Source: Eledone cirrhosa
Lineage: Eukaryota
Reading direction: 5' to 3'
DNA length: 64,000 nucleotides
Assembly (NCBI GenBank): GCA_964016885.1
Contig: OZ024743.1
Span: 310,186,001-310,250,000 of the forward strand
This document shows, in pieces, positions 32,911 through 62,109 of this stretch. Each line of letters starts with the position of its first letter. The stretch's first letter is position 1. The translations under genes and the position numbers were made by a program. The notes beneath the pieces were generated by a model. That model ran no database searches, was not told the origin of the DNA, and saw nothing but the letters and a program-made list of their open reading frames with translations.

Positions 32911-34587
32911 ATATATATATATATATATATTATATAGAAATATATTATACTTACATATATATATATATATAATATATATATATATTATACTTACACATAT
33001 ATATATATATACACACACACATATATATATATAAGATTGCGAAAGCATGAATGTACTTGTTCAATTAACACTTAACATTTAATATTCTACCATACTATTT
33101 CATTCTAATACCATTATAAATTTTAAAGGATTGTAAATAAAACGAGTAAATCAGACAAAGTTGAAATTCTTTTTATTAATATAATCTTCTATACACAATC
33201 ACACACACCCGCGTATATTTATTTATATATATATATTCCTATTGTGTATATGCCAACATGTCTGGAAAGCAACAAATGAAATCAACAGAATAAGAAAGAA
33301 TTCTAAAGGAAATGTGATCGAAATTATCAACACTTATCACGATTATTGACACACAATCCTCTATTTTATAGGAAATAGAAAAACAATCTACAGACGGAAA
33401 AGATATAACTGAACACATAAACTCTGTAATTAAGAATTTAGCTGAAATTACACCAACAGTTATCAAAGATACAAGAGAAAGCCTACCACAACCCCCTTGG
33501 ATGTCAGAACTAAACGAAAGTAATTTGGAAAACAAAACACATCGAATAAGAAAAGAAATGTGGAAGACATTGTAAAAATTTCTTAACATAAGAAAACAAA
33601 ACTTCTGGAAAGCATACAAATGCGAAAAATATGTCGAAACACATTCGAAATGGCTCTCTCTAACGGTACCCATATTCCCTCGTAAATACCTAATTACAGA
33701 AATTGCAGGAGAACCAGAAGAAGAAACAAAACTCCGATGGGAACTTACATTGACAAAATCCATCTCCATTTCTCAATGTAAACAATCCCGCTGCATAGCC
33801 AAATATGAAGTCAAAATGTCAAAGCTAACGACTGGTAATATAGCTGGAAAACTACGAGAACTATAGATCAGAGATATCTTAAAAGAAGAAAGCAAATCAA
33901 GAAAGTTATGGCAGCAGAAACAATTATTTCTCGACGAATATGCTGCAAATTACGGTAAAGACTCTAGAACTTTGAGAAAAAGCATTTAAAGTGGAAAATT
34001 TCACCAACACAACATACGCCAGAACGCACGGCAAACAAACACTCACCTTACCTTGAATCAAAGAAGAACTACGGTAAGAACTCTTTGCTTTTTCTAGAAA
34101 AACACCCTAACGCACACATGAACAAAAAGCACAAACACGATAGATATTCCTTTGACCAGACCATGAGAAGTAGAAAAACCAGGAGATCATTCTCAAGATC
34201 TCAACAGAGACTACCCACAAGGAACGGGGACAAAAACGTAGAATAACCAGATCACTCTCAAGATCTCAACAGAGATTACCCACAAGAAACTGGGCGAAAA
34301 AACGATCTAAACCTGAAAGCAAACCTAGGTCATTTCCCCAGATTGTTAAAAATAATGCTAACAAGAAATGGAAAGATAATATACATAATACCAAAAATAG
34401 GACAAAAAACATAATGAAACCAAATATAATATCACGACCAAAAGTTCATCAAGCAAACATCAACGGGAATATAAATCAATCTTGAACAGAGAAAAATCCA
34501 TTTTTTAACGTCAGGACAACACAAATCGGAAAAAGAAAAACTCCAGGAGGAAACATACCCAAAACAACTGTACACGTAGATCCTAAA

Positions 34588-36798
34588 ATAATTAATTTAT
34601 CCAAAAGAGATCTTGACAATGATGAAATGCAAATTCTGTCAAAAGGACTGAAATTCACACCGACTCCAACAGTCAACCTCCAAGAACTGAAGGAGGATAC
34701 CTAAGAATTCTGTCGAAAATTACGTCTTGTAGAATTCTTCGCTGATAAAAGTAATGAGAGTGATGAATCACTAGTAAAGGAAAAATCAAATTTCACTCCG
34801 CCAAAAGGAAGAAATATCTATCTCGACCAATACATTGACATTCTGTCAAAATTTTCTCTTAGACGTAATACTAATATTAGGCCAAACATTATCAAAAATC
34901 AGAAATGTCTGCACTTAAACGTACACAAAATGATAAAACAATAATAATTAAACAAGCAGATAAAGGGGTTGCAGTTGTTATAATGGATGCTGAATATTAC
35001 AAAGATTTGGTTGAGCAACAACTGAAAGACATAACATTCTATCATGAAATACCGTCAAATATAGACCACAACATCATGAAGAAGATCAACAACCTGGCTT
35101 CAAAATACCACAACTCACTTACTGATAAGGAAAGAGACTACATCACCAATTTTGAGCCAAAACCCTGCAACCTGTATGGCCTACCGAAAGTTCACAAGTC
35201 AAAAGAAATACAACTGGCAGTAAAAGAACAAAACTGTGAGTACATTAAATTACTACACCCAAAAGACTTAAAACTTAGACCTATTACAGCTGGTCCAACA
35301 TGCCCTACCCACCATCTAAGCAATTTTGTTGACATTATTAATTATTTTGAAACCACTATGTATTCACATAACGAGTTTCATCCGGGATGATATCGACCTC
35401 CTGTCCCATCTTTCCAAAACCACGGAAACGAATTCACTTCTACTCAGTTTTGATGTGGTAAGCCTTTACACCAACATTACACATGATTTAGGAATAAAGG
35501 CGGTTAAATACTGGGTGGAAAAACATAGAGAAGTGATTCCCACCAGATTCACAGCGCCATTTATATTAGACGCAGTAAAACTTATTCTGGAAAACAACAC
35601 TTTCTTCTTCAATGGAAAGAACTACATCCAAATTAGAGGCACAACGATGGGAGCGAAGTTTGCTCCCGTTTACGCGAACTCTGTAATGGGATACTTAGAA
35701 CAACAACTCTACCAAGAAATAGAGCAAAAATATAGCACTGACTTTAGAAAGTACATTGAAAAATCTTGACGACTGTTTCATCATCTGGACAGAATCTCTA
35801 GATAATCTGGATGAGTTCAATATCCTCCTGAATAACCTACACCCATCTCTCCAATTCGCAAAAGGGATGAGTAGTACCAAATTACCATTCCTAGATATAT
35901 TGGTACAAAAACGACACCACCATTACCACGGATATATATTATAAACACACAGACACCCATCAATATCTGAATTTAAGTCGTGCCATCCACCTCATACAAA
36001 ACGCAACATCCTATACTGCCTAGCCAGAAGAATTTGTACTATTGTAGAAGATACGAATACCAGGAACAAACGCCTAACAGAACTAAGAGAAATTTTGCTC
36101 AAACAAAAATACCCATCTCTACTTATAGAAAATGGCATACAGCGGGCTATAAAAATACCTATACAACAAATTAGGAAAACCCAAGGAAGAAGAAACCAAG
36201 AACTCGTCATACCATTTATAATGACACACAACCTATGTCACCAGAATATCTTCAACGCTGCCAAAGCAAACCTACCGATCATTGCTCAAAGTAATGAATT
36301 AAAAGGCTTAATCACAGACCGATCTTTGACTCTGAGTAAAAGACAGCCGAAATTTTTGAAGCAATTACTAACAAAAGCAAAGTTTGACCTTAACAACAAA
36401 GACCAATCATTCACTGTATCTAAATGCAATGATAGTCGATGTGGCACATGTTCATACACAACGGTCAATATATGAACACAAAAACTGGAAAAATATTCCC
36501 AAATACAAATATGAACTGCAAAAGCAGAAATCCAATTTACTGCATTAAATGCCCGAATTGTGAAGAACTATATGTCGGTCAAACTGGAAATGCACTATCG
36601 GAACGTGCACGGGTGAACCGACAGCAAATCAGAGACCCACATGTCCGTCATATACCCCTGAGTAACCATCTAGAAACATCTGGTCAGAAAATATTTATAA
36701 TATTTCCATTCTACAGATTACACAGCCCAAGTGAAATCAAGAGAAAAATCAAAAAGAATTTTATTGATAAATTCCAACCCAAGCTAAATGAACAATAA
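34588..36798 (+). pseudogene. Neptune-type RT + Cys linker + GIY-YIG pseudogene (N-terminal extension may start near 33258)
   Basis: IINLS..LSKGLKFTPTP, ADKG, LPKVHK, RPI, FDVVSLYT, GTTMG, CNDSRCGTC, IYCIKCPNC...YVGQT. Confidence 0.88.
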
Positions 36799-36870
36799 TA
36801 ATGGTTTATTAGTCCTACTATGACTACGAAAATGTCGACTACTACCACTAACAACAACAACAACAGTAAT

Positions 36871-37050
36871 AATAATTGTTTCTACTTTTGGAACAAGGCT
36901 AGCAATTACCCAGTGTATTACTGGTACTTTATTTTATCGACCCCGTAAGGATGAAAGGCAAAGTTAACCTCGGCGGGATTTGAACTCAGATCATAAAAGG
37001 ACGTAATTCTATGCTTCATAGCATGGTGTCCGACTCTCTACCGATACTGC
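36871..37050 (-). mobile_element. tRNA-derived SINE inserted in the Neptune 3' UTR
   Basis: Reverse complement of 12437-12625 family. Confidence 0.85.
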
Positions 37051-60090: not shown

Positions 60091-60139
60091 TGTGTATATA
60101 TGTATATATAGTGTTTGTATATATATATATATATATAGT

Positions 60140-61545
60140 AAAAAATTGAACGGGAACAAAACAGAGAGGCAGTACGAACAAAAGTGTCCGAGCGGGGAGG
60201 GCTGAAGGTGGTGTGTGTCTGTAGGTGTACGTGTGTGTGTGTGTGTATCTGAAAGTAAGAGTTGGGGGAAGAACGGGGTTGCATGTTCAGGAAGAGGTGT
60301 GTGTGGGGTGGGGTGTAGGTCGGAGTGTGTGTGCGTGTGTGGATGGGGAGGGGTCAGAGGGGTGGGGGGAGTGGATTCTGGAGGCTGAGTGTGTAAATAT
60401 GTGGTGGTACGCACGTGTGTGTGTGGTGTTTATGCGTCTTGTGGATGTAGGTGGCGTGTGGCAAACAAATTGTTTTGAGTGTATGTCATTGGGTGAGTCC
60501 TGAAGGTAGTTCCGTAGAGGATGTGGTGGAATGCTGGGTAATATCCTTGGGATGTGGTGAATTCTAAGGATCGATGTTCAATATGTGTAATCCGTGAAGA
60601 GATTGGTCGGAAGAGAGGAGATGTGGGGTGCGCGCGCAACAGGAAGTGGTCAGAGGGTAAAGACAGGAGGAGGGTTGTGTGTCTGTGTGTGCGGGGAGGT
60701 GGTCAGAGATAAGGGCATAGCAGCAGTCGGGTAGAATGGTAAGTGAAGAAAGTCGGTGTGTCAGTGTGTGCGGAGGTGCGGTGGACAGGGGAGAGGATGG
60801 GTAGGTGTGAAAGTTGGAGTGAGGAGGGTGTGTGTGTGTGTATTAGTAGAGGTGTTAGTGGGATGTGTGTGTGTGTGAGAAAGGGTGTGGGTGGAGCGGG
60901 GAGAGAAGTATGTGGGAGGTCGGGTTGGGGTGGGGGGAGTGTAGAGTACTGGTGTGTGTGTGCGTGCTTGGATGAGTGTATGTGTGGTGAAGGGGTGTTA
61001 GTGGGTGTTAGTATACTGGAGGTGGGGAAAGGGTTGAATGCGGGTGTGAGTGGGGGTCAGTGGTGGTAGGGTGTGTAGAGTGGGTGGTGTAAGAGGGTGT
61101 GTGTGTTCGTGTGTGTAGGGTTGGAGGGTGTTAGTGATGTTAGTTGCGTGTAGAGTGGGTGGTGTAAGTGGGTGTGTGTGTTCGTGTGCGTGGGGTCGTG
61201 GGGTGATAGTGATGTTAGTTGCGGGGGGGGGGATGTGTGGGGGTGAGGGTTAGTGGTGGTAGTAGGGTGTGTGTTTAGTGTGAGCGCGTGTATATATGTA
61301 CCGGTGGGTGTGTGCGTATGATAAGGAGAGGGGGGGGACTAGAAGGGAGGGATGTTAGTATGTTAGTTGGGGAAGGCTGGTCGGGTGTGGGGTGGAGGTG
61401 TTAGTATTTTAGTTGTAGGGTGGGCGGTGAAAAGGAGGGGTGTGTTACTGGGGGATATGTGTGAGGGTAGGGGGGCGGTCGAAGGCTAAAGTAATAAGGG
61501 TGGGGAGTTCAGGCCGGGGGGAGTGTGGGTCTGTATGGTGAAGAT
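60140..61545. other. G/T-rich strand-asymmetric low-complexity segment
   Basis: Many G3-G9 runs and gtgttagt motifs; ~70-bp duplication at 61070-61220; (TA)n flanks. Confidence 0.7.
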
Positions 61546-62109
61546 ATATATATATATATATATATATATATATATATATAACGTCCAGAAATAGCCGTCG
61601 AATCGGCTTGAGCTCTGCCGTCGGGGTCATACATTCTCATATGTATATATATAATGTGTAACGTTTATCGAAATATATAATTCTGTGTTCACAGATTGAT
61701 TTTTTTAATTTCAGAAGATCCCGTTAAGGGAAAACCGGACGTAAAATGATGATGATGATGATGATGATATTATTATATAATATATATATATAACATATAT
61801 ATACATTATATATATATATATTTATATAATATATATATATAATATAAATATAATATATATATGTAATATATATGTAATATATATATAGTATATATATATA
61901 TTATATATATATATATATATAATATATATATACATAATATATACATAATATATACATAATATATATATATAACATAATATATATATATAACATATATATA
62001 TATATTATATATATATAATATATATAACATATATATAATATATATTAATATAATATATATATATAATATATATATAAAACATATATAATGTATTTCGTTT
62101 CTGAATTTA

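Follow-up and report, generated by a model that had tools for sequence, protein, structure and literature searches.

Clustered 5' ends of Penelope-like elements in Eledone cirrhosa likely mark family-specific RNA start sites

Why do the 5' ends of Penelope-like elements (PLEs) in the genome of Eledone cirrhosa appear to lie in or beside a hammerhead ribozyme (HHR)? The question is raised by a 64,000-nucleotide stretch (contig OZ024743.1, positions 310,186,001 to 310,250,000; the whole stretch is here called the window), a nest of PLEs sitting in (TA)n repeats of a 3.0 Gb genome. An earlier reading of the window (the original prediction) had listed ten truncation and fold-back junctions and proposed that reverse transcriptase (RT) primes downstream of the HHR, runs to the ribozyme, and there folds back or jumps template. 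We found that the 5' ends do cluster, but that the cause is likely the start of the element's RNA rather than the ribozyme. On balance, we favor a reading in which a family-specific boundary is likely an RNA polymerase II start, and head-to-head hairpin inserts likely arise when both cut target ends prime RT on the RNA.

At least nine terminal-repeat families with type I hammerhead motifs (F1-F9) occur in the window setting. They appear to be canonical endonuclease-containing (EN+) PLEs by their open reading frame (ORF) domains, the arrangement of their pseudo-long terminal repeats (pLTRs), and their tail. Frames in the window encode RT with a C-terminal GIY-YIG domain. The 590-aa F1 frame matches RVT_1 at 138-226 and GIY-YIG at 485-574, both slightly below the Pfam cut-offs, and has 147 homologs, the best (66%) an octopus protein named RT-domain. 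The single-ORF assignment was made on this frame and on the N-terminus of the F2 RT, which was recognized by eye. The pLTRs stand in partial tandem or inverted arrangement. A 3' tail of about 26 to about 90 nt may be present at one insert end, and each of F1-F9 has two discrete 3' ends, one far and one near. The predicted ribozymes have the minimal type I form: a CUGANGA core (or its U3-A8 variant), GAAA, UH, and three stems. All relative positions below take the core C3 (or U3) as 0, with minus meaning 5' of the core.

We sampled 5' ends using exact 22-30-mer probes that lie downstream of the cut site and are therefore blind to how far 5' a copy extends. Hits were taken in genome order, as the first matches on one contig (C1). 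The samples, relative to all exact 3'-end matches genome-wide, were 72/8,070 for F2, 57 arms/3,269 for F4, 71/14,433 for F1, 50/2,580 for F6, 30/33,833 for F7, 31 arms/4,424 for F5, 30/164 for F8, 30 loci/1,911 for F3, and 51 arms/47,466 for F9. To call breakpoints, each copy was anchored at its 3' end and extended along long copies that occur in the genome. One arm was counted per insertion, and the best 12-nt window was compared to a fitted exponential decay (20,000 simulations). Two pairs of segmental duplicates on C1, L074/L076 and L166/L167, lie about 0.9 and 1.2 Mb apart; the first was kept in the F2 sample (n = 72), outside the peak, and the second was counted as one. F5 copies with a short interspersed element (SINE) insertion were censored.

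Significant 12-nt pile-ups were present in six of the seven families tested (p ≤ 0.001). They were sharpest in F2 (26/72 ends in -7..+4, p = 5e-5), F4 (32/47 in -45..-34, p = 5e-5), and F8 (12/25 in -69..-58, p = 5e-5), followed by F7 (13/29 in +40..+51, p = 2.5e-4) and F5 (7/26 in -7..+4, p = 3.5e-4). The plain decay with distance from the 3' end that would have spoken against clustering was not seen. The boundary, hereafter the wall, is one-sided. In the 50 nt beyond the peak we found ends of 0/6 of the surviving copies in F4, 0/4 in F8, 0/13 in F5, 1/5 in F7, and 4/24 in F2, and copies that pass the wall extend hundreds of bases further. In contigs from sequencing run X1 (DNA only, may be the same species), summed depth rises approximately tenfold across the F2 wall, with 238 loose ends at 1733 compared to a predicted +1 at 1730. 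A second F1 wall near -800..-900 was considered and rejected, as the long copies there end at scattered places.

The pile-up does not follow the ribozyme. Relative to C3, the wall is at -6 in F2, -7 in F5, -44 in F4, -68 in F8, about -70 in F1, -89 in F9, and +43 in F7. The clustering itself is thus real genome-wide, but its proposed tie to the HHR fails, since the wall shifts from +43 to -89 between families.

What the walls do resemble is a transcription start. F2, F4, and F8 have a TATA box whose first T precedes the wall by 30, 31, and 30 nt, respectively; finding this spacing in 3/8 families has a chance probability of about 1.5e-4, for a window picked after the fact. In F2, F4, F5, F8, and F9 the wall base, taken as the modal end furthest 5', is an A that follows a pyrimidine. 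The arrangement expected of RNA polymerase II, TATA approximately 30 nt before pyrimidine|A, is therefore present in F2, F4, and F8, and the initiator-like sequence alone in F5 and F9. The F2 insert at 31950..32561 in the window illustrates it: TATA at 32465-32472, a predicted +1 A at 32495, and an HHR at 32495-32545 on the plus strand. In F9, the motif CACT[AG][TC]C lies at -88..-90 in 11/14 long arms. By script, 10/51 F9 arms end at motif positions -1..+9 (2 more by eye), and one ends in the next 50 nt. The F9 wall thus sits at a CACT motif common to the F8 wall, without a fixed TATA. The F1 wall, a soft one, is just before what we take to be a YY1-like word, with presumed NRF1- and ETS-like words upstream. 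In the related families F8 and F9 the walls differ in position and CACT moves along with them, so that in these two the wall tracks the initiator-like motif and not the ribozyme. We suggest from these sequence features that the wall is likely the RNA polymerase II start of the element, that is, the capped 5' end of its RNA. A start site within the pLTR has been described for a PLE in part of an earlier report (PMC2377424).

The hairpin inserts provide a second line of evidence. One long and one short 3' end were paired in 9/9 F4, 10/10 F8, and 6/6 F5 hairpins (scored by eye). Among the F2 copies, 46/71 have an adjacent inverted arm. The 3' ends of these inverted arms fall at -62..-79 in 43/46 cases (38/46 at -62, -68, or -75), and their 5' ends in -9..+4 in 32/46. 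The long-ended and the short-ended arm both break off at the wall. In three F2 loci (L024, L033, L045) the element runs past both 3' ends into the RT ORF, with the ATG approximately 48 nt further, so both 3' ends must be internal to the RNA. Here the original prediction, which had RT priming 100-250 nt downstream of the HHR, is supported: RT starts at internal positions of the RNA, 100-270 nt beyond the region of the ribozyme. The strong-stop-like short products that it foresaw dominate in several families.

Junction letters vary from copy to copy and include untemplated fillers. On both sides of the junction they frequently agree with a stem of the ribozyme or with its palindromic loop III (L037, L054, L241; window 39441 and 55498), and trimmed junctions therefore land inside the ribozyme. 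Taken together, the hairpins have one arm per target end, a separate priming site for each arm, 5'-to-5' microhomology, and either arm longer, as in twin priming; snap-back with later deletion is also compatible with this pattern.

We propose the following sequence of events. The RNA would begin at the initiator-like pyrimidine|A in the pLTR, with or without TATA, and would carry the ribozyme within approximately 90 nt. The enzyme would nick both strands of AT-rich DNA and start at two sites inside the RNA, as shown for another PLE in vitro (PMC11167929) and in agreement with the two 3' ends found here. One DNA end would prime at the far site and the other at the near site. If priming occurs in the 5' pLTR, both cDNAs would be 100-350 nt and run off the RNA 5' end, like strong-stop DNA. 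The cDNA ends would then be joined through 2-6 nt matches, often from ribozyme stems or loop III, with some trimming that may scatter a minority of junctions into the ribozyme. Priming in the 3' pLTR would give the long copies that pass the wall, and a few templates may be self-cleaved. The joining through microhomology is a step suggested by the junction letters.

An alternative that keeps the run-off at the RNA 5' end is that the second arm is the first cDNA folding back on itself, the self-priming proposed in passages of PMC3846280, with the near 3' end produced by endonuclease resolution and unequal arms by later central deletions. The near-identity of the arms and their shared variants (25/26 scorable F2 hairpins share the stem II variant, a point that also speaks for our model), the 19/46 F2 hairpins that are symmetric within 3 nt, and the short palindromes at the F2 and F4 walls would all fit. 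However, in 21/46 F2 hairpins the inverted, short-ended arm exceeds the long arm at the 5' end by 4 nt or more (the reverse in 6), and so carries sequence without a counterpart in the long arm, as it also does in three F8 loci (L254, L262, L276). Fold-back of a single cDNA, as the original prediction had it, cannot by itself yield these. The near ends also fall on stretches matching the TA target, and both strands are extended in vitro (PMC11167929). We consider self-priming unlikely.

The wall might instead be another processing site, either a 3' splice acceptor or a cut made by the element's own endonuclease in cDNA or RNA. A YAG adjoins the F2, F4, F6, and F7 walls, and in F2 and F6 there are also runs of pyrimidines upstream. 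In a fly element an intron end maps to helix I (PMC4209133). Against this, many copies retain the AG and the bases before it (F4 solo copies L110, L313, L314, L315), no common upstream exon was seen in any flank, and the F5, F8, and F9 walls have no AG. This explanation is improbable.

We judge it more improbable still that the HHR itself stops RT, whether by leaving a 5'-OH end after cleavage or by its fold blocking the enzyme. The F2 and F5 walls do coincide with the first base of stem I, the F7 wall is inside stem II, and single copies begin exactly at the cut (L356, L165, L084). Ends within the HHR span also exceeded expectation in F2 (38 observed, 13.1 expected), F5 (12, 8.1), F7 (21, 16.3), and F6 (9, 7.8). 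In contrast, no excess was found in F4 (4, 8.0), F8 (6, 8.8), or F1 (3, 4.2), and the walls of F4, F8, F1, and F9 are well 5' of the core. Between the related families F8 and F9 the wall shifts with the CACT motif (-68 compared to -88..-90) while the ribozyme fold stays the same. In an alignment of their HHRs the core is invariant or nearly so, and 93.8% of cells are paired (structure set by hand, related rows); the fold is backed by compensatory changes, as 5/7 stem II pairs have changed on both sides. HHRs of the other families were identified by inspection. F3 has no wall despite an intact HHR in every unit, and for another PLE, HHR mutants leave insertion in vitro unchanged and no RNA-seq ends were found at the cut site (PMC11167929). 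A folding block is further disfavored because RT would be expected to halt where it first meets the structure, at the 3' edge, and not at the 5' edge or past it. As the main cause, an HHR stop is refuted by F4, F8, and F9. Of the three stops originally offered, the RNA 5' end survives, a folding block is unsupported, and a cleavage product accounts for at most a minor class: over seven families, 11 ends lie within 2 nt of the cut compared to 5.8 expected (p = 0.035), a weak extra at most, and a minor class of cleaved templates is possible.

A founder effect, in which a small number of original fold-backs gave rise to hairpins that copy themselves as mini-elements and so produced the peak, is hardly credible: one F4 junction form does recur (a 3-nt gap in 7/16 close pairs), but junction letters in F2 and in F8 are highly diverse and turn up again in other subfamilies, TA-flanked solo copies end at the same wall, and the sole identical junctions among those checked are segmental duplicates.

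Several observations count against the start-site and twin-priming interpretation. TATA plus 30 nt as the sole rule was tried and rejected: its advance prediction for F9 (+1..+3) failed, as only 1/51 arms ended there, and that one was an internal deletion. F5, F6, F9, and F1 have no TATA at -30, and the initiator reading for them was made after the fact. A G before the wall A, which could be an extra base derived from a cap, was present in 2/23 F4 and 3/10 F8 arms, counts that point neither way. F1 has only a soft peak (9/70 in -74..-63, p = 8e-4) and F6 no significant one (7/49 in its best 12-nt window, p = 0.07). Two F7 arms extend approximately 20 nt past the wall. Exact counts of F4 20-mers genome-wide fall from 3,895 to 1,845 across the wall, a smaller drop than in the sample; this is partly explained by the upstream 20-mer also matching a subfamily that the downstream one misses. 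Of the first 100 downstream F4 matches, 24 read exactly through the wall. Long/long hairpins occur (L168, L205), and for several long hairpins with near-equal arms far from the wall (L089, L094) snap-back is an equally good explanation. Finally, approximately 20 breakpoints had to be corrected by eye because the alignment was led astray by palindromes or internal deletions, and samples of first exact-pattern matches on C1 are biased to young copies.

Some F1 copies have dense sense-strand A>G changes: L391:5880-8092 (also L137, L138) and L392:3504-3903 (L341), with 36/55, 34/53, and 27/33 of mismatches. This is as expected if A-to-I hyper-edited RNA had been reverse transcribed. The F1 arms of L391 differ at 3/1040 positions. 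In one F1 insert the same A>G run is present in both arms, with 29/33 changes within -79..+87, and the 3' pLTR lacks it. The shared run is consistent with one RNA molecule and strong-stop cDNA transfer, and also with an already edited source copy. As a tentative and broader model, which we hold with some doubt, PLEs may insert by programmed twin priming. A dimeric enzyme would use each of the two target ends as a primer, at a pair of fixed sites close to the RNA 5' end; retrovirus-like strong-stop cDNAs would end at the cap and then be joined as hairpins or transferred to the 3' repeat, rebuilding a promoter-bearing pLTR. The genome would then record start sites to the base, and A-to-I edited inserts would trace single RNAs.

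We returned to the junctions in the window (Table 1). Seven of the ten are where the original prediction had placed them (33034, 39441, 41862 loosely, 44462, 47408, 54658, 55498). Those at 47408 and 54658 are both at the F2 wall (-3..+2). The junctions at 39441 and 55498 lie 6 nt 5' of the F5 cut, within palindromic loop III and at the same point as in L241, and 5-6 nt 5' of the F6 cut, respectively. At 33034 the copy begins at approximately +3 in the F4 core and continues into an ORF, but 0/47 sampled F4 insertions end in the core. The junction at 41862 is compatible with the F1 cut to within 4 nt, blurred by short duplications, and that at 44462 (+6, F3) belongs to arrays without a peak. At 43786 the left arm does begin at GAAA, but the right arm begins exactly at the F8 wall. 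The 45920 junction was misplaced: the F7 arms end at approximately +60 and +20, in stem II, and the cut is at 45989/90. The 61583 junction is real and coincides with the F7 wall, but the adjoining GAAA is not that of the ribozyme. The wrong GUC (45920) and GAAA (61583) had been chosen because the F7 core (UUGAGAA) is absent from the window; it is present in L212/L195. Missing from the earlier list are junctions distant from any HHR: 22809/22810 (F1, about -840 and -2050), 32313/32314 (F2, -236 and about -165), 32722 (F9, -89), and 62504 (F9, about -84). The list alone proves little, because its elements were recognized by their ribozyme.

Table 1. Features of the window, with positions counted from its first nucleotide.
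Feature	Position	Strand	
Young insert of F1 with an inverted, truncated copy, a partial tandem, and an ORF for RT + GIY-YIG; 20477 is the long end and 28207 the short end; junction 22809/22810 is distant from the HHR	20477..28207		
F2 long head-to-head insert, junction 32313/32314 far from HHR	31950..32561		
F9 hairpin-type insert, right arm from A 32722, exactly the F9 wall (-89)	32615..32912		
F4 decayed full-length PLE: 5' pLTR cut at ~+3 in HHR core, RT/GIY-YIG remnants, 3' pLTR	33033..37501	+	
TATA box of F4 (conserved in two subfamilies; the wall is 31 nt after its first T)	37272..37280	+	
F4 wall: A at -44, predicted +1	37303..37303	+	
F4 minimal type I hammerhead, C3 at 37347	37343..37379	+	
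F5 3' piece from 6 nt 5' of cut, head-to-head with upstream F5 segment	39340..39443	-	
F3 tandem array, weak Rfam HH9 matches below gathering score	40299..40884	+	
F1-related 3' piece ending near cut site; short duplications at junction	41647..41866	-	
F8 hairpin: left arm from GAAA (43785, minus strand), right arm from wall A 43786 (-68); HHR 43848-43909 with mutated core	43630..43961		
F3 inverted array of 319-bp tandem HHR repeat (U3-A8 core, retrozyme-like), junction 44459-44462	43967..45122		
Hairpin of F7; the left arm is short-ended and reaches ~+60, the right arm is long-ended and begins at ~+20	45884..46087		
F5 hammerhead with long stem II, C3 46596, cut 46473/46472, wall -7	46464..46605	-	
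F2 hairpin: long-ended arm minus strand, short-ended arm plus strand, joined at wall (47408)	47278..47473		
F2 hairpin, other subfamily, joined at wall (54658)	54535..54712		
Inverted piece of F6; the short-ended arm begins at +40, the long-ended one comprises the last 50 nt	55455..55545		
F7 solo piece starting at F7 wall (+44..46)	61583..61642	+	
F9 hairpin folded at about -84	62433..62573		
F6 long copy with HHR, C3 63001	62846..63130	-	

Chimeras had been attributed to the same mechanism. The SINE joins at F5 -7 that we checked are ordinary SINE insertions with target duplications, and template switching between SINE and F5 was rejected for all four, as upstream F5 sequence continues beyond each. 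The same ~190-bp SINE was inserted four separate times at this one site in stem I (L223, L231, L234, L238) among 26 sampled insertions; F5 -7 is a SINE hot spot.

F3 differs from the dispersed families. It is a non-coding tandem repeat with an intact HHR in consecutive units, as in non-LTR retrozymes, and no wall was found in the 30 loci sampled; its template was probably circular or multimeric. The 316-319 bp arrays also bear PLE marks, namely junctions between inverted units and, on one side, a tail of 26 nt, which suggests mobilization by a PLE enzyme from a multimeric template. F3 resembles the non-LTR retrozymes of a recent preprint (bioRxiv 10.64898/2026.07.22.740005) in being a tandem repeat, here of 316-319 bp, in which each unit has a type I HHR; unlike them, F3 arrays show the inverted junctions and the PLE-like tail.

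In the Rfam search, no HHR matched at the gathering score. Only F3 matched HH9 (22.6 and 21.9 bits compared to 52), and the other matches were repeat-driven miRNA matches. When seven HHRs were folded as single strands, z ranged between +0.4 and -2.5, which was uninformative. The F7 wall falls within the stem II loop (L212:1389-1484; window 45884-46087). Long TA/TG microsatellite tracts lie upstream of the F2 and F6 pLTRs (L005:1-1250; L185; window 63130-63330), and the F6 tract is followed by a pyrimidine run and AG, resembling an intron end. The N-terminal part of the F1 frame contains an asparagine/threonine-rich repeat (window 24603-24979), resembling the asparagine-rich inserts of rotifer Penelope ORFs in a passage of PMC3846280. 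Inverted-repeat elements without a ribozyme motif, at 59657-59963, 57764-57790, and 58944-58972, are apparently a different repeat class.

LINE-1 twin priming, in which two target ends prime on one RNA, leaves a head-to-head inversion, and retroviral strong-stop DNA is a short cDNA running off the RNA 5' end. The insertion model proposed here shares these features but differs in that both priming sites would be fixed, internal, and near the RNA 5' end, with no tRNA primer and no poly(A).

Much of the architecture is known. Inverted pLTRs, tails, TATA and initiator words, and ribozymes in pLTRs are described in parts of PMC3846280, PMC8557442, and PMC4209133. Passages of PMC8557442 and PMC3846280 on canonical EN+ PLEs report, as we do, RT with a C-terminal GIY-YIG, partial tandems, a 5' inverted copy, a tail at one end, microsatellite targets, and TATA with a TCACT initiator-like motif in the pLTR. 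They differ in calling truncation variable and in the origins they propose: resolution by the endonuclease for the tail, and self-priming on a template of antisense polarity for the inversion. These passages report neither a sharp start-site wall nor a one-long-one-short rule. In the parts of PMC11167929 on Poseidon of the green anole in vitro, both strands are likewise nicked and extended at AT-rich targets, two internal RT starts bound the tail, and the ribozyme is dispensable for insertion. The Poseidon starts are within the ORF, whereas those of F2 are before it, and 5' junctions and hairpin products are not treated in those parts. The minimal type I HHRs of PLE pLTRs in portions of PMC4209133 likewise have a helix III that is short and palindromic and a helix II that is long and variable, and they include the U3-A8 variant (here F3 and F7) and opposite-strand pairs 100-700 bp apart. 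Cleavage and circularization are proposed there as a route to tandems, whereas the dispersed families here mostly record an uncleaved template. The words 'hammerhead' and 'palindrom' are absent from the text of PMC13282606. We found no report of a start-site wall or of twin priming in PLEs in a literature search that left aside subscription papers and supplements (Figs S1 and S2 of PMC11167929 may bear on 5' ends). What appears to be new is the start-site wall and the twin-priming model, within a known element class.

With a wall that is sharp to the base and the pairing of one long with one short arm, the internal starts seen in vitro can be built into a specific model of insertion whose positions are named. 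They also argue for a sense template, and against the proposal of antisense self-priming. The ribozyme appears to be mostly uncut in the templates that get copied. An F7 RNA starting at the wall would have no ribozyme core in its 5' copy, and only the 3' copy would be whole. The model accounts for short palindromes that this genome contains in great number (exact 3'-end matches: 8,070 for F2, 33,833 for F7, 47,466 for F9), which could be mistaken for miniature inverted-repeat transposons. If the wall is the RNA start, it would explain how PLEs leave head-to-head hairpin inserts.

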